NCBI GenBank assembly: GCA_965215595.1
Contig: CBDCDW010000005.1
Location: 235,316 to 299,315 of the forward strand
DNA from: an uncultured Candidatus Binatia bacterium
GTDB taxonomy: Bacteria > Desulfobacterota > Binatia > UBA9968 > CAXXLF01
Length of the DNA stretch: 64,000 nucleotides
Direction of reading: 5' to 3'
A program made the translations under genes and the position numbers. Below are positions 2,350 to 40,754 of the stretch, piece after piece; positions within the stretch are counted from its first letter, which is position 1; the number at the start of each line of letters is the position of its first letter. The notes under the pieces were generated by a model, which was not told the DNA's origin, did no database searches, and saw only the letters and a list, made by a program, of their open reading frames with translations.

Positions 2350-2640
2350 ATGGAGCAGTCAATGACCCTGCACCAGCTTGAAATCTGGACCACCGTTGCA
2401 AAACGCCAGAGCATGACAAAAGCGGCAAAGGAACTCCGCATCAGGCAACCATCGGTAACCCAACAGATCAAGCTTTTAGAGAGAGAATTCGGGATACAGC
2501 TCTACAAGGTTAATGGGCGAGGGATTGAGCTTACCCCGGCAGGGAAACGTCTACTTACCTATGCTAAAAAGATACTCCTGCATATCGATAAACTTGAAAA
2601 AACATTTAAAAGTCTAAAACGAATTCACCGACGTCGTTGA
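2350..2640 (+). pseudogene. LysR-family regulator, N-terminal HTH domain only (truncated remnant)
   Basis: The 96-aa ORF (LHQLEIWTTVAKRQSMTKAAKELRIRQPSVTQQIKLLEREFGIQLY) is a typical LysR winged-HTH, but it stops after ~90 aa. The ~200-aa effector-binding domain is absent. Confidence 0.45.
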
Positions 2641-2764
2641 CCTCCCCTAGACCCAACTTCCCCTCACTCAATTTTGGAATCCATTTTTGTAACATGTGGA
2701 TTCACCTTGTATTATAAATTCATTTGGAATATTTGTTGATTCTGCCGGTAACAACCAGGTCATT

Positions 2765-3439
2765 ATGGGCAAAAGAATAACCATCACAGGAAAAGACGGA
2801 TTTCATTTTGGCGCCTTTTTGGACGAACCTGACGGCAAACCAAAGGGCGGAGTAGTTGTCTGCCAGGAAATCTTCGGTGTCAATCAATATTTGGAAAACG
2901 TTTGCGACTTTTACACCAAGGCAGGTTACTTGACCATCGCACCAGCGCTCTTTGACCGAATAGAACGCGATCTGGATATAAAATATTCACCAGAAGGCGT
3001 CCAGCGAGGCATACAGATTTCGTCTAAAGTTGACTGGGACCAAGCGCTGGACGACGTAGAGTCGTCACTGGCCACGGTTCGTACGGCGGGAGCTCAAAAG
3101 TTTGGCGCCATCGGATTTTGTTGGGGTGGTACGCTCGCCTGGCTCCTCGCATGCCGCCGTGAAGTTGACTGTGCAGTGGCCTATTACGGCGCGGAGATAG
3201 AGCAATTTCCCAATGAGCATGCCCGTCATCCCGTGATAATGCACATCGGGGAAGAGGACCCTATCATATCGCCAGAGAAACTTGAGAGTATAAAGAAGGC
3301 CCAGGCCGGCACGCCGATTTTCACTTATCCAAAGGCGTCCCACGGTTTTGACAACGAAGCCCGGCCGAAATACGACTCTGCCACGGTAAAGCTCGCTCGC
3401 GAACGCACCCTCGAATTTCTCGCTAAGCACGTACGGTAG
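2765..3439 (+). CDS. Dienelactone hydrolase family protein (carboxymethylenebutenolidase-like)
   Basis: MGKRITITGKDGFHFGAFLDEPDGKPKGGVVVCQEIFGVNQYLENVCDFYTKAGYLTIAPALFDR..., then a GxxG nucleophile elbow region (GFCWGG) and the C-terminal HGFDNE motif. The ORF track starts at 2696, but the internal Met at 2765 gives the canonical DLH length (~225 aa). Confidence 0.75.
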   Translation: MGKRITITGKDGFHFGAFLDEPDGKPKGGVVVCQEIFGVNQYLENVCDFYTKAGYLTIAPALFDRIERDLDIKYSPEGVQRGIQISSKVDWDQALDDVESSLATVRTAGAQKFGAIGFCWGGTLAWLLACRREVDCAVAYYGAEIEQFPNEHARHPVIMHIGEEDPIISPEKLESIKKAQAGTPIFTYPKASHGFDNEARPKYDSATVKLARERTLEFLAKHVR

Positions 3440-3455
3440 GCAAACAACACTCCTC
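3336..3455. repeat. Direct repeat copy 1 (3' end of the DLH gene plus ~15 bp downstream), ~92% identical to 9188-9300
   Basis: cgtcccacggttttgacaacgaagcccggccgaaatacgactctgccacggtaaagctcgctcgcgaacgcaccctcgaatttctcgctaagcacgta... is repeated at 9188 with a few substitutions. The spurious antisense ORFs at 3065..3430 and 8641..9282 share the N-terminus MLSEKFEGAFASELYRGRVVFRPGFVV for the same reason. Confidence 0.85.
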
Positions 3456-3896
3456 TACTGCGCTATGTTCAGTTCGAGGATTTGTCATCTTGGGATTCAC
3501 AATCGTTCTCAATCTCTTCTCGGTTTACGCTGCGGTTGTTCAATGGTAATGGACACTAGTGGCTAATCACGCGAGTTCGGAATCTGTAGGTTCCGTTTAA
3601 GTATAGATGAAACAGCTTGTTCTGTGAAATTTTAGCTACCTTACTTTTAGTTTGATTGAAATGGGCTAGTACAGGCAAGTTCATTTATAGATAAAAATCT
3701 AACTTTAAATAGCAAGCCAGGCTTGACAAGGTTGGCATTCCTAGAATAAGAGTAAAAGAGTTGAAGATCTCCTGGCGAACCCCGGAGAGATAACTACTTT
3801 GAATCGCAGTTCACAACGTCCAACCGGGTTCTTGCCAGCCCATGTGTTTCTCAATGGTTCCAAGCCGAGATTGAATAGAGGAAGGAGCTTTTCATT

Positions 3897-4475
3897 ATGG
3901 CTTTAGTGAGAATTCCAGAGGGTCTTAATCATGCTCACTTTGATAAAATAAGAGAAATACAGGAAAACATTTTATCGGATATAAAAGGTGCAAGGCGGGT
4001 AGGTATTCGGCTTAATAAAACAGACACAACATATCCATCCCCTGTTTTTGTTGGAATTCTTGAGGATGCTACCATGAGGACCGATAGAGTAAGACGGGGT
4101 GGGGTGGATCCGGGACACGAACGGTTTAGGAATGAGGACTTCTCAGTGATTTACAATCAAACTGTTTCTGACCCTCAAGGCAAATATTGGGAGCGAGATT
4201 GGAATGAAGATAATGATTGTTATGAAAAAACCCTAGGGGGATTAAGGAAGCAAGGCAATAATGATAAGGGAGGCGTAAGATATCAAATCTTCATTGCAAT
4301 TAGAATTGCTGACGGGGCTTGTAAGCGTTCTATAGGGATTTTGGGAATAGGACTTGATGAAAAGCCGCAAGATATGAGGGACGTTGGGGCTGCAATGATA
4401 CGCTGGGCCCAAAGCAACTCTGAGCTCGTTCAACATATCACAAATACATACAAGCTTGGGGGGCCACTGTTTTAA
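3897..4475 (+). CDS. Hypothetical 192-aa cytoplasmic protein, translationally coupled to the downstream histidine kinase
   Basis: A good RBS (ggaaggag) precedes the ATG. The stop (4473-4475) lies 3 bp before the HK start. The region is AT-rich relative to its neighbours, no TM segment is present, and I recognise no motif. Confidence 0.5.
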   Translation: MALVRIPEGLNHAHFDKIREIQENILSDIKGARRVGIRLNKTDTTYPSPVFVGILEDATMRTDRVRRGGVDPGHERFRNEDFSVIYNQTVSDPQGKYWERDWNEDNDCYEKTLGGLRKQGNNDKGGVRYQIFIAIRIADGACKRSIGILGIGLDEKPQDMRDVGAAMIRWAQSNSELVQHITNTYKLGGPLF

Positions 4476-4478
4476 GCT

Positions 4479-6173
4479 ATGCCGCGACCGAAACGCAAAG
4501 CCGCGAACAAAAAAAAGGGCTCCTTGTTAAGAATCTCTCCTACCAACGAAAATTTACTCTCTCGGGCTACGGACCTCTCAGCCCTGCTCACACTGGTAGA
4601 AACGGCGACCCAATCGCTCGATACCGACAAGATCTTGAACGACACGCTGGATAAATCGTTGGAGGTCCTGCGTTTTGATGTGGGCTATATTCGAATTTTG
4701 GACCCGGAAACAAGAACTATGGTGGTCCGCGTGGGCAAAGGCTCAAGATTGCCTGAGATTCAGTACAGCACCGTTCCTATAGATTCGCCTCGTCGTCATT
4801 TAGCAAGCATTATCTTCAAAACTCGCGAGCCCTATATCTGCCTCGATGTTCGGAAAGATAAAAAGTTCAACAACCGAAGCATGGAGCGAGAGGGGGCCAT
4901 TTCAGCAGCTTTTATTCCTATTATGTCTAAGACTCGTATATTAGGAATCATAACGTTAGGAAGTCGCAAGTTTCATAAGTTTACCAAAAGAGAGATTAAT
5001 CTCCTCAAGGCCTTTGGCTCCCAGCTTGGCGCTGCGCTGAAAAATGCTCAACTCTACGACGAGGTGAATAATGGCAAGGCCTATATCGAAAATCTCGTGG
5101 AAAATGCGGGCGACGCTATCATCTCCACGGATCTGGAGGACCAGATCCTCACCTGGAACCGTGGCGCAGAGGTCATATTTGGCTACAGTAAAGAAGAGGT
5201 AGTAAGTAAAAATCTGACTATTCTTCTGCTTCCAAGCGATCATAGGGAACTTGAGGGGATGCGTAACAAAGTCAAGCTGACTGGTGTGATTCGTGACCTT
5301 GAGGTGCGACGAAAGAGAAAGGATGGGCGAATCATTAATGTGACCGTGGCAGTTTCACCCATTAAAGACAATAACGGCAATGTTATCGGGTTTCTCCGGT
5401 TAGCCAAAGACATCACTGAGAAAAAACGTTTTGAGGAAAGGCTCAAAGAACTCGATAGGATGAAATCGGACTTTGTTTCCAACGTCTCCCACGAATTAAG
5501 GACACCGCTTACCTCAATTAAAGGCTCGGTGGACAATATGCTTGACGGTATAACGGGCCCATTGAACGAAAAACAAAACCGCTATCTTACGCGCATCAAG
5601 TCGAATTCGGATCGTCTCTCGCGGCTCATCAATGACATCTTGGACCTCTCAAAATCCGAATCGGGGCGATTCGACCTTACGCCGACGGATCTTCCTCTTG
5701 TCACTCTAACGCAGGAGGTCGCAGAGAGCATTAGGCCAGTGGCAACGGAAAAGCTTATTAGTCTTGAGGTTGCCTCTCCTGATATTAATCTGACTGCTTG
5801 GGCAGATCTAGATAAGGTCACGCAGGTGCTGTTGAACCTCATTGGCAATGCAGTCAAGTTCACTCCGCCCTATGGCAAAGTAGGCGTAGCTATTCAAAGA
5901 AATGGGAATGAGTGGGTGCAGATATCCGTTACAGACACAGGACCAGGTATTCAGACGGACCAGGTAGATAAGATCTTCGATAAGTTTTACCAAGTTGCCC
6001 AAGCAACAAAACAAATAGCCAAAGGCACCGGACTGGGACTCGCTATTTGTAAAGCCATTGTGGAAATGCACGGGGGACGTATCTGGGTAGAAAGTAAATT
6101 AGGCAAAGGAAGCACCTTTTCCTTCACTCTACCTGCGCAGCAGCCGTTTAAGTTTGAACTACCTGCCAGATAG
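4479..6173 (+). CDS. Cytoplasmic sensor histidine kinase (GAF - PAS - HisKA - HATPase_c)
   Basis: A GAF-like N-terminal region is followed by a PAS block (ENLVENAGDAIISTDLEDQILTWNRGAEVIFGY), the H-box SHELRTPLTSIKGS, and N/G boxes (NLIGNAVKFT, DTGPGI, GTGLGLAICKAIVEMHGGRIWVES). No TM helices are present. Confidence 0.85.
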   Translation: MPRPKRKAANKKKGSLLRISPTNENLLSRATDLSALLTLVETATQSLDTDKILNDTLDKSLEVLRFDVGYIRILDPETRTMVVRVGKGSRLPEIQYSTVPIDSPRRHLASIIFKTREPYICLDVRKDKKFNNRSMEREGAISAAFIPIMSKTRILGIITLGSRKFHKFTKREINLLKAFGSQLGAALKNAQLYDEVNNGKAYIENLVENAGDAIISTDLEDQILTWNRGAEVIFGYSKEEVVSKNLTILLLPSDHRELEGMRNKVKLTGVIRDLEVRRKRKDGRIINVTVAVSPIKDNNGNVIGFLRLAKDITEKKRFEERLKELDRMKSDFVSNVSHELRTPLTSIKGSVDNMLDGITGPLNEKQNRYLTRIKSNSDRLSRLINDILDLSKSESGRFDLTPTDLPLVTLTQEVAESIRPVATEKLISLEVASPDINLTAWADLDKVTQVLLNLIGNAVKFTPPYGKVGVAIQRNGNEWVQISVTDTGPGIQTDQVDKIFDKFYQVAQATKQIAKGTGLGLAICKAIVEMHGGRIWVESKLGKGSTFSFTLPAQQPFKFELPAR

Positions 6174-6184
6174 TGAGGTGGGTT

Positions 6185-6553
6185 ATGGGGCTCAAAGTCC
6201 TTGTTGTGGATGATGAGGAAGACATTGTCGAGGTGATCAAGGATCGCCTGGAAGCCTATGGGTTCACGATTTCGACAGCGGGAACCGGTCTGCAGGCTTT
6301 GAAAAAGCTTTCCATGGAAAAATTTGACGGTATTTTCCTGGACATTAAGATGCCAGAGATGGGCGGCATGGAAGCCTTGGAGGAGATCCGCAAGAATGGA
6401 TTGACAATCCCTGTGATTATTCTCACCTCATCTTCCACTAAAGATGTACCCTTGGAGGCTATGGCCAAGGGAGCCGATGATTACCTCCTTAAGCCCTTCG
6501 AGTGGGAAGAGCTGAAGGCCAAAATCGAAAAGGTCTACAACATCTCCCTATAG
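6185..6553 (+). CDS. Single-domain response regulator (CheY-like receiver)
   Basis: KVLVVDDEEDIVEVIKDRLEAYGF...FLDIKMPEMGGMEAL...KPF is a REC domain with no output domain. The start overlaps the HK stop (GTG at 6173 or ATG at 6185). Confidence 0.75.
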   Translation: MGLKVLVVDDEEDIVEVIKDRLEAYGFTISTAGTGLQALKKLSMEKFDGIFLDIKMPEMGGMEALEEIRKNGLTIPVIILTSSSTKDVPLEAMAKGADDYLLKPFEWEELKAKIEKVYNISL

Positions 6554-6589: not shown

Positions 6590-7915
6590 GTGGTCGATGA
6601 TGACCAGAATATCCAGGAGGTGATCAAAGACCGCCTGGAATCCCTGAATTGCCGGGTATTGCTAGCCTCCAATGGGAAAGAGTGCTTGGAAGTTCTCGAG
6701 CACCAGAGCCCGCAGATGGTCCTTCTTGACATCGAGATGCCCGGTGTCAACGGGCTCGAAGTTCTAAAAGAAATTCGTAAGAGAGAGTACGATGTGAGCG
6801 TGGTAATGATCACAGCTCACGGCACCATTGATCGTGCAGTGCAGGCGATCAAGGGAGGGGCCTATGATTTTATTCAGAAGCCTTTTGAGCCTGACCATAT
6901 TGCCTTAATTGTGGAGCGGACCCTGGAGAGGGAAAGGCTTAAAAGAGACGTAGAGATCTTCTCCGAAGAGATAGGCAAACGTTATAACCTGATTGTGGGT
7001 AAGAGTGCCAAGATGAACCGGGCAGTTGAATTGGCTAAGAAGTCGAGCGCAAGTCGGTCCACTGTGTTGCTTTTAGGAGAAAGTGGAACCGGCAAAGAGA
7101 TATTTGCTCGGGCGATCCACAATTGGAGTGAGCGTTATGGCAAGCCCTTTATTGCCATTAACTGCGTTGGCCTTTCACGGGAACTCTTGGAAAGCGAGCT
7201 TTTCGGCCATGAAAAAGGAGCTTTTACGGGGGCCCATCAGCTTAAAAAAGGCAAGATGGAACTGGCCCATGGTGGGACCATCTTTCTTGATGAAGTTGGC
7301 GATATTTCTCAAGAACTCCAAACCAAACTCCTCAGATTTCTCCAAGAGCGGGAATTTGAGCGGGTCGGAGGGACAAAATCTATCATTGTGGATGTGAGAA
7401 TCATAGCCGCCACGAATCGCGATCTGGATCGGGCGGTCAAAGAAAATAAATTCCGTGAGGATCTCTATTATCGCCTCAACGTCATTCCCATTGTTCTTCC
7501 TCCTTTAAGAGAACGAAGAGAAGACATTCCTACCCTGGCCTACTATTTTTTGCGGCGGTTTTCCTCGGAAACCAAGAAAAGCTTCACCGAGATAACCCTA
7601 GAAGCCTCCGAGAAACTCCAAGCCTATGACTGGCCGGGAAATGTCCGCGAGCTAGGAAATGTCATGGAGCGGGCCGTTGTTTTGGGCCAGGCTCCAAAAG
7701 TTCAACTGGAAGACCTGGCACCCAGTATCGCTTTCTCACAGCCCGTGAACCGCGAAGAAGACTATTCGTATCATGAGGCCACGGATAGCTACAAACGGCA
7801 GCTAATCATTCGGGCCCTAACACAGGCACAGGGAAATCGCGCCGCGGCTGCAAGGGCCCTCGGTCTTCAGCGGACCTATCTTTCCCGATTGATAAAAACT
7901 CTTCGTATTGGCTGA
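6590..7915 (+). CDS. Sigma-54-dependent response regulator (NtrC family: REC - AAA+ - Fis-type HTH)
   Basis: REC (VVDDDQNIQEVIKDRLE...LLDIEMP), Walker A GESGTGKE, a canonical GAFTGA (ESELFGHEKGAFTGA), an R-finger region, and a C-terminal HTH (NRAAAARALGLQRTYLSRLIK). The start is GTG. The REC domain is paralogous to that of the preceding CheY-like gene. Confidence 0.85.
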   Translation: MVDDDQNIQEVIKDRLESLNCRVLLASNGKECLEVLEHQSPQMVLLDIEMPGVNGLEVLKEIRKREYDVSVVMITAHGTIDRAVQAIKGGAYDFIQKPFEPDHIALIVERTLERERLKRDVEIFSEEIGKRYNLIVGKSAKMNRAVELAKKSSASRSTVLLLGESGTGKEIFARAIHNWSERYGKPFIAINCVGLSRELLESELFGHEKGAFTGAHQLKKGKMELAHGGTIFLDEVGDISQELQTKLLRFLQEREFERVGGTKSIIVDVRIIAATNRDLDRAVKENKFREDLYYRLNVIPIVLPPLRERREDIPTLAYYFLRRFSSETKKSFTEITLEASEKLQAYDWPGNVRELGNVMERAVVLGQAPKVQLEDLAPSIAFSQPVNREEDYSYHEATDSYKRQLIIRALTQAQGNRAAAARALGLQRTYLSRLIKTLRIG

Positions 7916-8118: not shown

Positions 8119-8133
8119 TGGCACAGCCTTTGC
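8119..8133 (+). promoter_or_regulatory. Sigma-54 (RpoN) -24/-12 promoter TGGCAC-N5-TTGC, ~36 bp upstream of the cyclase start
   Basis: ttGGcacagcctttGCg matches the consensus YTGGCACG-N4-TTGCW, with the GG and GC doublets correctly spaced. It sits immediately downstream of a sigma-54 activator gene. Confidence 0.6.
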
Positions 8134-8169: not shown

Positions 8170-9186
8170 ATGGGGGAAATGATGGCTGAAGAGATTCTGG
8201 TCCCAACCAAAGGTCTAAATGGCATTGAGGAAATCATCCCTCACCTCGAGCATATTGCCAATCCAGCAATGAGCGTCATTTTGCTGGTTCCCTACCGAAC
8301 GGAGCTTCTCCGCAGCCTTTTGCATCAGTGGATTCCAGCAGAGTCGAGGGAGGAAGATTTACCACAGGGTATAGAGACCACGGAAGGGCTCTCACTGGAG
8401 CCACAAAACAGGTTGGCTGATCAGAATAGCGCTCCCGCTCGTGAGAGTTTAATGAAATTTGACCCCCGTAACGTAAGCCTTTACTATCTTGGCTCCAATG
8501 GAGTAGAGCACGACGTTCCTAAAGGAAAGATGGCCATGGAGCTCATAGGACTCGAACGTAAGCTCACCGCCATCCTTAGCGCCGATGTGGTTGGCTATAG
8601 CCGCCTGATGGGCGAGGATGAAGCGGGCACAATCCATACCTTAACGGCCTACCGCGAAGTGATGACCACCCTTATCCAGCAACACCGTGGCAGAGTCGTG
8701 GACGCACCGGGTGACAATCTCTTGGCGGAGTTTGCCAGCGCAGTGGGCGCGGTGGAGAGCGCGCTCGCTATTCAGCAAGAGTTGAAGACGAGGAACGCCG
8801 AACTGCCTGCTGACCGCCAGATGGTCTATCGTATCGGAATTAACGTTGGCGAGGTCGTGGTCGAGGGCGAGCGGATTTATGGTGACGGTGTCAATATTGC
8901 CTCCCGTTTGGAGAGCTTGGCCGAGAGCGGAGGCATCTGCCTCTCGGGGAATGCTTTTGAACTGGTTCGTGATAAGCTGGCGGTCGGCTTTAAAAACCTC
9001 GGTGATCGAAGGGTCAAGAATATCAACAGACCGATTTCTGCCTATAGCGTGCTCACCGATCCTGACTTCGTTGGAAAGGTGAAAAACGCGCCCGCGAAGG
9101 GGTTTGCTCGTTGGAAATGGCCAGCCGTCACCACCACCGTCATGTTCATTCTTATCGCAGCAAGCATTGGAGTGTGGTGGCCCTAA
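8170..9186 (+). CDS. Class III adenylate/guanylate cyclase with an unknown ~120-aa N-terminal region and a C-terminal single TM anchor
   Basis: Cyclase homology domain: LERKLTAILSADVVGYSRLMGEDEAGTI...VDAPGDNLLAEF...YRIGINVGEVVVEGERIYGDGVNIASRL. A C-terminal hydrophobic helix (WPAVTTTVMFILIAASIGVWWP) closes the protein. The N-terminal 120 aa have no recognisable motif. Confidence 0.8.
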   Translation: MGEMMAEEILVPTKGLNGIEEIIPHLEHIANPAMSVILLVPYRTELLRSLLHQWIPAESREEDLPQGIETTEGLSLEPQNRLADQNSAPARESLMKFDPRNVSLYYLGSNGVEHDVPKGKMAMELIGLERKLTAILSADVVGYSRLMGEDEAGTIHTLTAYREVMTTLIQQHRGRVVDAPGDNLLAEFASAVGAVESALAIQQELKTRNAELPADRQMVYRIGINVGEVVVEGERIYGDGVNIASRLESLAESGGICLSGNAFELVRDKLAVGFKNLGDRRVKNINRPISAYSVLTDPDFVGKVKNAPAKGFARWKWPAVTTTVMFILIAASIGVWWP

Positions 9187-9187
9187 A

Positions 9188-9300
9188 CGTCCCATGGCAT
9201 TGACAACGAAGCCCGGCCGAAATACGACTCTGCCACGGTAAAGCTCGCTCGCGAACGCACCCTCGAATTTCTCGCTAAGCACGTAGGATAATCAAACAAG
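9188..9300. repeat. Direct repeat copy 2, starting 2 bp after the cyclase stop codon
   Basis: See copy 1. It encodes a gene-less ...HGIDNEARPKYDSATVKLARERTLEFLAKHVG* tail. Confidence 0.85.
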
Positions 9301-9430: not shown

Positions 9431-11446
9431 CTAGTGCGTCCGCTCCCCGACGAAGTCCGCCAACTCACGGAGTACGTGCGCATCGTTACCGAAGGCGATG
9501 ATCGCCTCTTTCGCCTCGTGGATGAGCTGCTTGGTTCGCTCGCGGGAGTTTTCAACGCCGAGGACCGAAGCGAATGTCGCTTTGCGGTGGCGCGCGTCGC
9601 TGCCTTGCGGCTTACCGAGCTGCTCGGTGGAGGAGGTGACGTCGAGGATGTCATCGACGATCTGAAACGCGAGGCCGACACGCTCACCGTAAATCGCTAG
9701 CTGCTCGATCTGCTCGTCCGTTGCACCGCCCGCAATACCACCCGCCACAATAGACGTGCGCAGGAGCGCTGCCGTCTTCATTCGGTGCAAGCGTATGAGG
9801 GCGTCGGTGTCGAGCTGTTGTCCGTCGGAGAGAATGTCGATGACCTGCCCACCTACCATTCCGTGGGCTCCAACGGCAGACGAAATCTCATGAACGAGAC
9901 GAATGGCGCGAGAGGCTCCGATACGCTCTGTGAGCGTCGGATCTGCCAGTAACTCAAAGGCGCGGGTCAGCAACGCATCCCCAACCAAAATCGCCATCGC
10001 TTCGCCATAGACCTTGTGTGTCGTGGGCTTGCCCCGGCGCAAATCGTCGTTGTCCAAGGCCGGCAGGTCGTCGTGCACCAGCGAGTAGGTGTGGATGAGC
10101 TCGACTGCTAGCGCTGGCATTATCGCGTCGCTCGCCGCGGCTCCCACCGACTCCGCAGCCGCCAGTGCCAGGATCGGGCGAAGTCGCTTTCCCCCTGCGA
10201 ACACCGGGTAGCGGACCGCGTCCGCAAGTTGGTCGGGTGTCGACCCATTCGGGAGCGATCCGTCTAGAGCAATTTCAACAAGCTCCCGCCTGGAAGCCAT
10301 ATAGCCGCTCAAAACATCGGCCGACGTCCCAGCCACTAGCGTGCTCCGGGGTTGCGGCGAGATGGTCACGGGTCCTAGGCTCAGGCGGCAGAAACTGGTG
10401 CGCAGTGCTTCGTCGTCCTCCACATGCTCGACGCAATCCTGGATCAGCTTTTCGACCTCTCCATGGGAGATCTTCACCGGCTCGCCGGGGATGAGCTGGG
10501 CGTCGTTTCTCCGGGCATAGGCAAGGGTGCGCACCGCCATCCACAACGGTAAGAGACAGAAAAGGCGTATGTCTCGTTCGTTCGGCGGGATCGCCAAGCA
10601 ATAGGTGAATGCATGCTCGAACCCGCGCTGAGCACGCTTGAATAGCGGCGCCAGCGCCGTGTGAGCGCGCTCTCGCGCCTCGGGTTGCAACAGCTCGGCT
10701 ACCTCCAGGCCAGCATCCTGGCAGACCGTGCGCGGGACATAGCAAACGCCGCGCTCCCAGTCGTTAGTGATATCCTTGAGGATGTTGGTCATCTGCAGGC
10801 CGACGCCAAACTCCTCCGCGTTGGTGCGCAGGGCATGAGTGCGCGGGGCATCGAGATCGCAGGTATCCGTGAATAGGTCGGTGAGCATGTGCGCGACCGT
10901 CCCTGCGACGAAGTAGCAGTACCGTTCGAGATCCGCAAGTGTTGTCAACGCCACGATGCCATCCTCGCCAGTTGGGCGCCGACTGTATATGGCCATCCCG
11001 CGCGCCATCTCGCATACACCCCGTCGTATCGCTCGCTGCGAGGAGTCGTTGAGCTCCGCGAAGACGCCGAGAACGCGCGGCAGGTTTTTCACTAGCCGAC
11101 GCTCCGCGCTCGCCGGTCTTTCACCGTTGTCAGGGAACCGGCTCGCGAAGTCCGAAGCCGAAGCATCCTGCTCCAAACATTCGAGGAAAGATAAATAGAG
11201 GCCGTCCCGCTCTGCCAGTGTGAGGTTTGACTCATCCTCGATCGTATCGGCAATCCGGCATAGCAAGTAGCCGCAGGTGACCGCACGCTCCAGCGGATCG
11301 CGCAACATCGCGATTGGCAAACTGAAGGTCCGCGAGACCTCCTTCAGCGACTGCTGACAGAAACGCCAATCGCTGGAATTCATAGCGCCATCGGTTAGCA
11401 TAACTTTGTCACAGAATGTAACCCGTTTATTCGGTTTGGAAACCAC
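9431..11446 (-). CDS. Bifunctional fusion: squalene/phytoene synthase-like domain (N) + trans-polyprenyl diphosphate synthase (FPP/GGPP synthase) domain (C)
   Basis: N-terminal half: RIADTIEDE and LQMTNILKDITNDWERGVCYVP, the two Asp-rich SQS/PSY motifs, plus YCYFVAGTVAHM. C-terminal half: GKRLRP, the first DDxxD-type motif LVHDDLPALDNDDLRRGKPTTH and the second FQIVDDILD. The gene is high-GC. Confidence 0.75.
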   Translation of the reverse strand: MVSKPNKRVTFCDKVMLTDGAMNSSDWRFCQQSLKEVSRTFSLPIAMLRDPLERAVTCGYLLCRIADTIEDESNLTLAERDGLYLSFLECLEQDASASDFASRFPDNGERPASAERRLVKNLPRVLGVFAELNDSSQRAIRRGVCEMARGMAIYSRRPTGEDGIVALTTLADLERYCYFVAGTVAHMLTDLFTDTCDLDAPRTHALRTNAEEFGVGLQMTNILKDITNDWERGVCYVPRTVCQDAGLEVAELLQPEARERAHTALAPLFKRAQRGFEHAFTYCLAIPPNERDIRLFCLLPLWMAVRTLAYARRNDAQLIPGEPVKISHGEVEKLIQDCVEHVEDDEALRTSFCRLSLGPVTISPQPRSTLVAGTSADVLSGYMASRRELVEIALDGSLPNGSTPDQLADAVRYPVFAGGKRLRPILALAAAESVGAAASDAIMPALAVELIHTYSLVHDDLPALDNDDLRRGKPTTHKVYGEAMAILVGDALLTRAFELLADPTLTERIGASRAIRLVHEISSAVGAHGMVGGQVIDILSDGQQLDTDALIRLHRMKTAALLRTSIVAGGIAGGATDEQIEQLAIYGERVGLAFQIVDDILDVTSSTEQLGKPQGSDARHRKATFASVLGVENSRERTKQLIHEAKEAIIAFGNDAHVLRELADFVGERTH

Positions 11447-26349: not shown

Positions 26350-27145
26350 GGGTAGAGTAGAGGACAGGCTTAGCTTGCTTTAGGCCGCACCTTGGCTGTA
26401 TCCGCCGTTTCCAGCTTCGTGCCCGTTTAGGCACTTCCGTAACAAGCGTTCCTGTCCCCCCTCATCAAACCGTACTTGCAGTTTTCCCGCATACGGCTTT
26501 CCGATCATCTTCATCTCAAGGCATGCGAGGCCGCCTATTGAGCTCCCTCTTGGCCTTGAGATACAGTCTCCGCTAGAGGTCTCGAATCTTGTTAGGTGTT
26601 TGTAGCCTCACGGCAATCACCTCTCCTTCCCTCTTTAAGAGACACAATGAAAGTAGGGCGCCTTCCCTCAGCCGGCATTACCCAGCCTCCTCGGTAATAC
26701 TCGCCCCTCCGACTTCTCGCCCGCCTGACCCTGACTTCGGTTTCCCTTATACCGAGCCATTGCGGCTATCACCCGCGACAAACGAGATCTCCCGCGTTAC
26801 CCATCACAACTTCCCCCACATGCCGTCCCGACGACCCCGGAGAGCCCATCTGCTTCTGTCTCGGTTATTTCCACAGATGGCACCGGCCTTCCCCATCTGA
26901 CCACAGGGTCGGCACTCTCAATCAGCAAGTTACGAGGCTCTATGGGTTCCCTAGTAGTACGGCCTGCGAGTTTGCGATCCTCTCCTTTTGGAAAGTTTTC
27001 TCGATCCACTTAGCCCTGAGAGTCACCCCTCAAAACCGGATCTTCGCTAGCGGGGTGAACCGTTAATTCCCCGCACCGGACTTTAACCGGCAAGTTGCAC
27101 TGCTTCCGCGGCATACGGTCAGGTCTTGACGGGCTGTTGCCCAAA
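26350..27145. repeat. ~796-bp repeat, copy 1 (>99% identical to 28697-29492)
   Basis: Direct comparison shows only two mismatches, both near the right end. The identical spurious ORFs 26589..26900 and 28936..29247 in the track reflect this. Confidence 0.9.
26439..27076 (-). ncRNA. Putative ORF-less group II intron (ribozyme only), copy 1
   Basis: On the minus strand the element starts GTGCG (complement of 27072-27076) and contains a textbook domain V near its 3' end: aAGCcgtatgcggGAAAActgcAAgtacggttt. That is a 9-bp lower stem beginning with the AGC triad, an AA bulge, a 4-bp upper stem and a GNRA-like loop (complement of 26467-26499). A hairpin region follows and ends ...gttac. There is no room for an intron-encoded protein. 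Confidence 0.55.
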
Positions 27146-28696: not shown

Positions 28697-29492
28697 GGGT
28701 AGAGTAGAGGACAGGCTTAGCTTGCTTTAGGCCGCACCTTGGCTGTATCCGCCGTTTCCAGCTTCGTGCCCGTTTAGGCACTTCCGTAACAAGCGTTCCT
28801 GTCCCCCCTCATCAAACCGTACTTGCAGTTTTCCCGCATACGGCTTTCCGATCATCTTCATCTCAAGGCATGCGAGGCCGCCTATTGAGCTCCCTCTTGG
28901 CCTTGAGATACAGTCTCCGCTAGAGGTCTCGAATCTTGTTAGGTGTTTGTAGCCTCACGGCAATCACCTCTCCTTCCCTCTTTAAGAGACACAATGAAAG
29001 TAGGGCGCCTTCCCTCAGCCGGCATTACCCAGCCTCCTCGGTAATACTCGCCCCTCCGACTTCTCGCCCGCCTGACCCTGACTTCGGTTTCCCTTATACC
29101 GAGCCATTGCGGCTATCACCCGCGACAAACGAGATCTCCCGCGTTACCCATCACAACTTCCCCCACATGCCGTCCCGACGACCCCGGAGAGCCCATCTGC
29201 TTCTGTCTCGGTTATTTCCACAGATGGCACCGGCCTTCCCCATCTGACCACAGGGTCGGCACTCTCAATCAGCAAGTTACGAGGCTCTATGGGTTCCCTA
29301 GTAGTACGGCCTGCGAGTTTGCGATCCTCTCCTTTTGGAAAGTTTTCTCGATCCACTTAGCCCTGAGAGTCACCCCTCAAAACCGGATCTTCGCTAGCGG
29401 GGTGAACCGTTAATTCCCCGCACCGGACTTTAACCGGCAAGTTGCACTGCTTCCGCGGCATACGTTCAGGTCTTGTCGGGCTGTTGCCCAAA
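28697..29492. repeat. ~796-bp repeat, copy 2; ends in the left inverted repeat of the IS1182-family element
   Basis: See copy 1. The offset is 2347 bp. Confidence 0.9.
28786..29423 (-). ncRNA. Putative ORF-less group II intron, copy 2
   Basis: Identical to copy 1 (offset 2347 bp). Confidence 0.55.
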
Positions 29493-40379: not shown

Positions 40380-40754
40380 ATTGCTTCTCCTTTCGGATTT
40401 TGAGTTTTCTGAAACTCTCGCAGTCTTTTTTTTGTCCTGCATGCAATACCTTGTTTGCAACCGCTGTGCCAAACCAGCCAGGCATGGATAACTCCCTGAG
40501 TTTTAAGGATTTTTTGAAAAATCAGGTTCGAAAGTGTTTGCCTAGCGAGTCAACTCCGTTGACATCCATTTCCCGGAAAATGCCCCAATTATCAACAAAG
40601 ACAAAGCTTTCGCTTGTCAGTAAACCGGGTTACGGTGCAGTAAACTTTGTTAACAGGATAGTTGACTGTCATCGAGGAACGATGGTTACAACGATAAATC
40701 TGATCCCAGATTGCAGCCCCCCGAGCAATTTGACAACCGATTGACCTCGGAGTT

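Follow-up and report, generated by a model that had tools for sequence, protein, structure and literature searches.

This study concerns a small gene in a stretch of 64,000 nucleotides of genomic DNA from an uncultured Candidatus Binatia bacterium (GenBank assembly GCA_965215595.1, contig CBDCDW010000005.1, positions 235,316 to 299,315), which is referred to as the window and whose first nucleotide is position 1 in the coordinates given for it. The gene, located at 3897..4475 on the forward strand, starts with ATG, ends with a TAA codon at 4473-4475 and encodes a protein of 192 residues, here termed X, which is predicted to be a cytoplasmic stand-alone protein with a GAF fold and which belongs to an unannotated family. 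It directly precedes the gene of a soluble histidine kinase, and the same arrangement recurs in related loci of other genomes. By analogy to the nitrate receptor NreA, we lean towards a role of X as an accessory ligand sensor that would act on the GAF domain of this kinase. A previous interpretation based on the letters of the window, the sequence-only reading, had proposed X as an upstream soluble partner of the kinase that serves as its ligand-binding or modulatory subunit. The GAF fold and the conserved synteny speak for this proposal, whereas family members with export signals and the near-neutral evolution of X in the window clade count against it. Its second suggestion, of a new sensory family, applies to the unannotated sequence family, whereas the fold is known and the arrangement has a precedent in NreA and NreB.

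The predicted structure of X resembles a GAF domain

A first structure prediction with AlphaFold2 (AF2), based on only three sequences, was unusable, with a predicted local distance difference test score (pLDDT) of 48, and was replaced by a run on an alignment of 61 sequences, which resulted in a pLDDT of 92.8 and a predicted template modelling score (pTM) of 0.89. In this model, a central antiparallel sheet is flanked by helices and superimposes on solved GAF domains, and a Foldseek search relates it to the GAF domain of a sensor kinase (3o5y_B, E=1.4e-4). The model thereby describes X as a very divergent GAF-fold protein, with a fold of the small-molecule sensor type, and the remote-homology check on a structure model that had been recommended earlier turned out in favour of the proposal. 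The region of residues 58-125 supplements the core with additional short helices and includes a disordered loop at 110-125. A recent duplication of the GAF domain of the kinase itself was considered as a source of X and rejected: in a comparison of the two with hhalign, the probability was 2.5% and the alignment was confined to the beta4-beta5 hairpin.

X represents a sequence family of its own

At the level of its sequence, the earlier statement that X contains no motif that could be placed is correct. Searches with the single sequence found no match in Pfam, NCBIfam and PADLOC. Matches in PHROGs and among the sequences of the Protein Data Bank (PDB) were limited to noise, and a profile of the family was likewise without annotation. 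This includes the GAF profiles of Pfam, since the window protein does not match GAF, GAF_2 or GAF_3 at E<=1 and does not reach the gathering threshold, and the best GAF-type match among 61 family members is a single one to GAF_2 at E=0.11. The only Pfam domain above noise in the family is TAT_signal, which was detected in five of the 61 members and refers to twin-arginine translocation (TAT). The PHROGs and PADLOC searches lend no support to an origin of X from a phage, an insertion sequence (IS) or a defence system; homology to a phage or IS protein, which the sequence-only reading had named as evidence that would speak against it, was thus not found.

A word-indexed search that covered 5.8 billion proteins retrieved X itself and only two relatives, with 74% and 54% identity (E=5e-89 and 1e-55), and the genes of both are linked to that of an orthologous kinase by an identical junction, TAAGCTATGCCGC. 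The extent of the family became apparent in an exhaustive HMMER search, in which a profile hidden Markov model (HMM) of X was compared with 1.84 billion cluster representatives, providing 95 matches at E<=1e-3, 65 of them at E<1e-10. True members are stand-alone proteins of 170-255 residues. Four long matches that would place X in a fusion with a kinase or another domain proved to be spurious, three of them being Ig/PKD repeat proteins and the fourth also unrelated. In databases, the members are named only 'hypothetical protein' or 'twin-arginine translocation signal domain-containing protein [Candidatus Binatia]', and their hosts are so far exclusively uncultured soil and groundwater bacteria, represented by metagenome-assembled genomes (MAGs) labelled Binatia, 'Deltaproteobacteria', Syntrophobacteraceae and Acidiferrales.

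The family alignment is characterized by the motifs IPxGI, RLN, PxPVFVGW, PDPGLxRFGD, RDW, YQ, VGTLxVGF and LGGP. Among 126 unique sequences, the strongest conservation is found for N40 and G147 (98% each), R38 (96%), R76 and Y86 (94% each), W102 (92%), S83 (87%) and R100 (83%), with L39, P49, A171 and G189 as further conserved residues, and the invariant positions are kept down to 26% identity. Neither cysteine nor histidine is found among the 25 positions that are conserved to at least 80% in these sequences, and conservation is also lacking for C108 and C142 of the window protein. A conserved set of Arg, Asn, Tyr and Trp residues that includes no Cys or His suggests a non-covalent, cofactor-free and probably anionic ligand site. 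In all relatives, the reading frame of X is intact and the positions of its start and stop are kept. X is a genuine gene, far beyond a chance open reading frame (ORF). Because Pfam and NCBIfam do not cover it, the term new sensory family appears fair at the level of the sequence family, and X represents, as judged from these searches, a new sequence family whose fold and design principle are known.

X is co-inherited with a soluble GAF-PAS kinase

The kinase next to X (4479..6173, forward strand) consists of 564 residues, in which Pfam identifies a GAF (47-187), a PAS (203-312), a HisKA (328-396) and a HATPase_c domain (443-554). Its ATG at 4479 is separated from the stop codon of X by the three bases GCT (4476-4478), confirming the previously noted 192-residue ORF with a stop 3 bp before the kinase start, with the correction that the ORF ends at 4475 and that 4479, earlier taken as its end, is the first base of the kinase. 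The absence of a membrane or periplasmic domain from the kinase was also described correctly, as no transmembrane segment was found in its sequence and the maximum Kyte-Doolittle mean over 19 residues is 1.48. We count this lack of a membrane or periplasmic input in favour of X as an accessory sensor. In all loci, the orthologous kinases carry a Lys/Arg-rich tail of 25-40 residues that precedes the GAF domain, such as MPRPKRKAANKKKG in the window (4479-4570), which could serve as a docking element.

The conservation of this gene pair was investigated from both sides. A scan of genome contigs for X, in which a 17-sequence subset alignment was used, added MAGs assigned to Binatia, Deltaproteobacteria, Syntrophobacteraceae and Acidiferrales, and distant members with 26-37% identity are located in a Binatia MAG, a 'Deltaproteobacteria' MAG and in soil metagenomes. 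All X-anchored loci with enough downstream sequence continue from X into an orthologue of the kinase (55-68% identity to the window protein), a receiver protein of 122 residues (57-75%) and an NtrC-type sigma-54 activator (67-74%), with X as the first gene of a conserved operon. The gap between X and the kinase mostly amounts to 0-30 nt (15 loci), and the flanking genes outside of this cassette differ completely between lineages.

In the reverse test, metagenome contigs were collected by use of the kinase GAF domain alone and then searched with the HMM of X. The sample comprised 48 loci of orthologous kinases with at least 750 nt of upstream sequence and 20 control loci with unrelated GAF kinases. 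X was found directly upstream of the kinase in 46 of the 48 loci (45 and L027) and in none of the 20 controls, and the co-occurrence with GAF-PAS kinases in other genomes, which had been put forward as a test of the sensor proposal, is thus pronounced; some of these kinase-anchored loci are near-duplicates, with 61 of the 69 pairs of X and kinase being unique. Locus L027 contains two tandem paralogues of X (1475-2098 and 2628-3233) in front of the kinase, and the only locus without X is L079, which harbours a kinase paralogue of 48% identity. In locus L045, a further gene (998-2308) is located between X (158-970) and the kinase, and in its product the GAF domain of this subtype is fused to a class III cyclase that takes the place of PAS-HisKA. 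X thus tracks the GAF domain and not the core of the kinase. The distance matrices of X and of the kinase GAF domain are correlated (r=0.76, Mantel p=0.001). A second copy of X was not detected in the window.

Comparison with known sensory systems

GAF domains are among the commonest input modules in bacteria. To our knowledge, very few free-standing GAF proteins have been described as controlling a kinase, with NreA as the main example. In the NreABC system of Staphylococcus carnosus, NreA is a stand-alone GAF protein that acts as nitrate receptor, forms complexes with the soluble kinase NreB and switches it between kinase and phosphatase states (PMC12423327). X is also a small stand-alone GAF-fold protein that is encoded directly upstream of a soluble kinase in the same operon, and a sensor derived from NreA (9ncu_A) is found among the Foldseek matches of its model. 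In contrast, there is no detectable similarity between their sequences, as searches against PDB sequences, which would include deposited NreA chains, returned nothing relevant, and X is about 40 residues longer owing to its additional helices at 58-125. Further differences concern the partners and the output: the kinase next to X is of the GAF-PAS type, whereas the PAS domain of NreB carries a [4Fe-4S] cluster; an NtrC-type sigma-54 activator accompanied by an additional receiver takes the place of NreC, which is of the NarL type; and the probable output of the cassette is a nucleotide cyclase instead of nitrate reductase. Finally, part of the X family contains TAT signals, which sets it apart from NreA.

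The combination of X and the kinase GAF domain also recalls the tandem GAF-A/GAF-B sensors of CyaB1/CyaB2, PDE2 and PDE5, from which it differs in that the first GAF unit, X, is a separate polypeptide and a member of an unrelated sequence family. The control of a soluble histidine kinase by a small soluble ligand-binding protein is known from PII (GlnB)-NtrB-NtrC and from H-NOX/HnoK, and in the case of PII the signal feeds into an NtrC-type activator. The folds of these proteins are distinct, ferredoxin-like in PII and a haem domain in H-NOX, and X does not contain a conserved His for binding haem. The chemistry of the free methionine-(R)-sulfoxide reductase fRMsr (YebR/MsrC), an enzyme with a GAF fold, requires conserved catalytic and resolving cysteines. 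The X family has no conserved Cys, and fRMsr is not linked to kinases.

A candidate role in signalling and its alternatives

As accessory sensor, X would bind a small, probably anionic ligand in the pocket of its GAF fold, for which R38, N40, R76, S83, Y86, R100 and W102 are candidate residues. It would contact the N-terminal GAF domain of the kinase, in effect completing a split tandem-GAF sensor, and thereby shift the balance between kinase and phosphatase activity. This balance would in turn set the phosphorylation of the receiver and of the NtrC-type activator and thus the sigma-54-dependent expression of the cyclase encoded downstream. Ligand binding, the residues lining the pocket, the contact with the kinase and the direction of regulation are features that we infer.

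Several observations weigh against this role. Convincing TAT signal peptides, consisting of the motif SRRDFLKG and a hydrophobic region, are present in about 10% of the family, with eight of 61 representatives (P0005, P0016, P0022, P0034, P0036, P0039, P0052 and P0060) and four of 49 metagenome loci, the loci with X of this type being L006/L007, L024, L025, L028 and L031, and one such member is annotated by NCBI as a TAT-signal protein. The kinases next to them are of the same soluble type, without a membrane segment, and among those that are most similar to the window kinase, whereas X, once exported, could no longer be attached to a kinase that resides in the cytoplasm. The window protein itself has no signal peptide of this type, in which an S/T-R-R-x-F-L-K motif is followed by a hydrophobic region.

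A second set of objections is of evolutionary nature. Between the window and loci L004 and L005, the ratio of nonsynonymous to synonymous substitution rates (dN/dS) of X is 0.61-0.85, with a synonymous rate (dS) of only 0.25-0.40, compared to a dN/dS of 0.15 and a dS of 0.48 in codons 1-229 of the adjacent kinase for the same genome pair. The synonymous divergence of X is thus below that of the kinase within the window clade. In the family as a whole, the divergence of X exceeds that of the kinase GAF domain 1.7-fold, and rates of this kind are unusual for a subunit that docks tightly. Together, the TAT members and the dN/dS of X argue against a simple and universal cytoplasmic complex. Moreover, the kinase has GAF and PAS inputs of its own and an extra sensor is not required, and its putative association with X is supported at the level of co-inheritance.

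The composition of the gene is also distinct. The GC content of X (42.5%) is lower than that of the kinase (47.3%) and of the whole window (51.7%), in agreement with the sequence-only reading, in which X was found to be lower in GC than neighbouring genes, and its GC content at third codon positions (GC3) is 0.35, compared to 0.51 in the kinase. A GC3 of 0.35-0.38 is shared by X in the window, in L004 (707-1303) and in L005 (190-804), and X falls below its kinase in GC3 in 14 of 15 related loci. In light of the TAT signals, the high dN/dS and the low GC3 of X, two alternative explanations stay alive.

In the first of them, which we regard as unlikely but deserving of attention, X is not a subunit of the kinase but a co-transcribed effector, either a ligand-binding or sequestering GAF-fold protein or an enzyme that acts alone. 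It would act in the cytoplasm, or in the periplasm in case of the TAT members, and its operon position would keep its dosage matched to that of the signalling genes. The near-invariant location of X at a short distance upstream of one kinase subtype, despite differing flanks, is unexpected for such an effector, as is its position in front of the GAF-cyclase of L045, which bears the same GAF subtype, and fRMsr chemistry is excluded by the absence of a conserved Cys in the family.

As a second alternative, which appears distinctly improbable, X could be a structural partner that does not bind a ligand, a degenerate GAF module that dimerises with or caps the GAF domain or the basic tail of the kinase and determines its basal activity as anti-kinase or scaffold. 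It would draw on the same synteny evidence as the accessory sensor, the fast drift of X suits a protein that needs to preserve only its fold and one interface, and the conserved Lys/Arg-rich tail of the kinase would be available for docking. In contrast, the top conserved residues are polar or aromatic (R38, N40, R76, Y86, R100 and W102, conserved to 83-98%) and thus resemble a binding site more than a hydrophobic interface, and the TAT members are equally hard to explain in this way.

Still lower in our ranking is a more elaborate version of the sensor role, a speculative idea in which X, a free GAF unit that is also paired with a GAF-cyclase in L045, would be the receptor arm of a mixed two-component and cyclic-nucleotide circuit. 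It would bind the cyclase product or another nucleotide and feed back onto the kinase via the split tandem-GAF arrangement, and the TAT members would be exported, tying the signalling to export or to the ligand state of the periplasm. If true, the family would be one of sensors that switch compartment over short evolutionary distances. It is finally hardly conceivable that X is a chance or decaying frame devoid of function, as might be read from its GC3 of 0.35 and the dN/dS of 0.6-0.85 in the window clade, in view of a frame that is intact in all relatives, the 65 clusters at E<1e-10, a confident and well-packed fold and residues that are invariant at 26% identity.

Start and upstream region of the X gene

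The strong ribosome-binding site that had been assigned to X is confirmed by direct reading of the sequence, where the Shine-Dalgarno element GGAAGGAG (3880-3887, forward strand), which contains AAGGAG, is located 9 nt before the ATG. The protein begins with the conserved sequence MALVRIPEG, and, since a stop codon is located in the same frame six codons before the ATG, an N-terminal extension and a signal peptide are excluded.

A TTGACA hexamer at 3723..3728 on the forward strand, which is invariant in the alignment of the window with L004 and L005, is tentatively assigned as a -35-like element. The corresponding -10 element is uncertain, as TAGAAT is only 13 nt away and AATAAG is found at 16 nt. 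A promoter scan detected no canonical sigma-70 promoter upstream of X and was silent on this hexamer because a canonical -10 element at 16-18 nt is absent. A sigma-54 promoter is also absent upstream of X in the window. Such a promoter precedes X in eight of 55 loci, chiefly of the TAT type, and in L006, L007 and L031 it is located 65-71 nt upstream of the gene.

The leader of about 150 nt between the putative promoter and X (3750..3896, forward strand) is kept in the two close relatives and contains no supported RNA structure. A riboswitch or other structured leader was considered and rejected, with no Rfam match, a fold z-score of -0.10 and only two compensatory pairs among three sequences. 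The mean column identity of the leader in the window, L004 and L005 is 78%, which corresponds to the synonymous divergence of X (pS 0.22-0.31). A special conservation was thus equally rejected, as the leader is no better kept than the synonymous sites of the gene.

The downstream cassette and its probable sigma-54-dependent output

The kinase gene is followed by a single-domain response-regulator receiver (6185..6553, forward strand; Pfam Response_reg, E=6e-31), which is conserved in other loci and also found among the gene calls of L002. Translation from the ATG at 6185 results in 122 residues, and from an alternative GTG at 6173 in 126. The subsequent gene (6590..7915, forward strand) encodes an NtrC-type response regulator of 441 residues, which is composed of a receiver domain, a sigma-54 AAA+ domain and a Fis-type helix-turn-helix, as reflected in its Pfam matches to Sigma54_activat (E=8e-72), Response_reg, AAA_lid_14 and HTH_8.

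Downstream of this activator, a -24/-12 core of a sigma-54 promoter is located at 8119..8133 on the forward strand (TGGCACAGCCTTTGC, TGGCAC-N5-TTGC), 36 nt upstream of an ORF at 8170..9186. The pattern TGGCAC-N5-TTGC is found twice in the window, compared to 0.10 expected matches, and 25 of 27 loci contain an equivalent site in the 600 nt behind the activator gene, where 0.017 sites per locus would be expected as calculated from the remainder of the same loci. The site at 8119-8133 is probably the output promoter of the signalling system. With the kinase, the receivers, the AAA+ activator and the -24/-12 promoter, all parts of a module of the two-component and sigma-54 enhancer-binding type are present. 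The only other exact match in the window, at 40457-40471 on the reverse strand, is a possible second sigma-54 promoter.

The ORF at 8170..9186 (forward strand) encodes a protein of 338 residues with a class III nucleotide cyclase domain at residues 134-284 (Pfam Guanylate_cyc, E=4e-10) and a hydrophobic C-terminus, which is, as judged from the position of the promoter, probably the sigma-54-dependent output. In about 20 of 27 loci, a class III cyclase is encoded behind the activator, often preceded by a small protein that shares the N-terminal domain of the window protein. The N-terminal part of the window protein of about 130 residues (8170-8580) constitutes a conserved domain with the motif ILVxLKxxDRxxxIIPxLExIAKPGxKV, which is located directly behind the sigma-54 promoter and which is encoded as a separate small ORF in L006 (12338-12928 and 13243-13602), L008 (12212-12706), L014 (15247-15783), L015 (14163-14507) and L016 (14499-15035). 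No match to this domain was found in Pfam or among PDB sequences, and its identification as similar to a universal stress protein, a guess that found no support in these searches, was abandoned.

The cassette is bracketed by a direct repeat of 112 nt. The left copy (3336..3447, forward strand) is located at the 3' end of a dienelactone hydrolase gene and the right copy (9188..9299, forward strand), which is 94% identical, begins 2 nt after the stop codon of the cyclase. The two copies are spaced by 5852 nt and enclose X, the kinase, the receiver, the activator and the cyclase. In L001-L003, a second tblastn match to residues 211-246 of the dienelactone hydrolase is found at the position of the right copy. 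Although the copies resemble the attachment (att) sites of an inserted island, no integrase is encoded between them. From the bracketing repeat and the lineage-specific flanks, the cassette appears to travel as a unit and to have been inserted at this site.

Other features of the window

Three further observations concern regions outside of the cassette. Between the genes of HpaB and dienelactone hydrolase, an ORF of the LysR type (2350-2640, forward strand) encodes only 96 residues with HTH_1 as sole domain, based on gene calls in L001-L003, and is probably a truncated regulator. On the reverse strand, a gene at 9431-11446 encodes a fusion of 671 residues that combines a squalene/phytoene synthase-like protein with a polyprenyl synthetase (Pfam assignments via the gene calls of L002 and L003). 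Its GC content of 61% (GC3 0.72) is well above the window mean of 52%. The reverse strand also carries two copies of a group II intron (26352-27084 and 28699-29431), which are located 2347 nt apart and obtain identical Rfam scores of 91.7 bits for RF02005 and 47.9 bits for RF00029.

Implications for the family and its hosts

X introduces a family of about 90 sequence clusters that is located outside of Pfam and NCBIfam and that is restricted to uncultured Binatia- and Desulfobacterota-like bacteria of soil and groundwater. Its genomic context reveals a previously undescribed cassette, complete and apparently portable, in which a predicted accessory GAF protein is combined with a soluble kinase, a receiver, a sigma-54 activator and a promoter that probably drives the expression of a cyclase. 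The TAT members pose the question of the use of an exported protein whose gene is locked to that of a cytoplasmic kinase. If X is a ligand receptor, it would constitute a compact soluble sensor for a probably anionic ligand with a readable transcriptional output, which would be useful for the annotation of these phyla and as a scaffold for biosensors.

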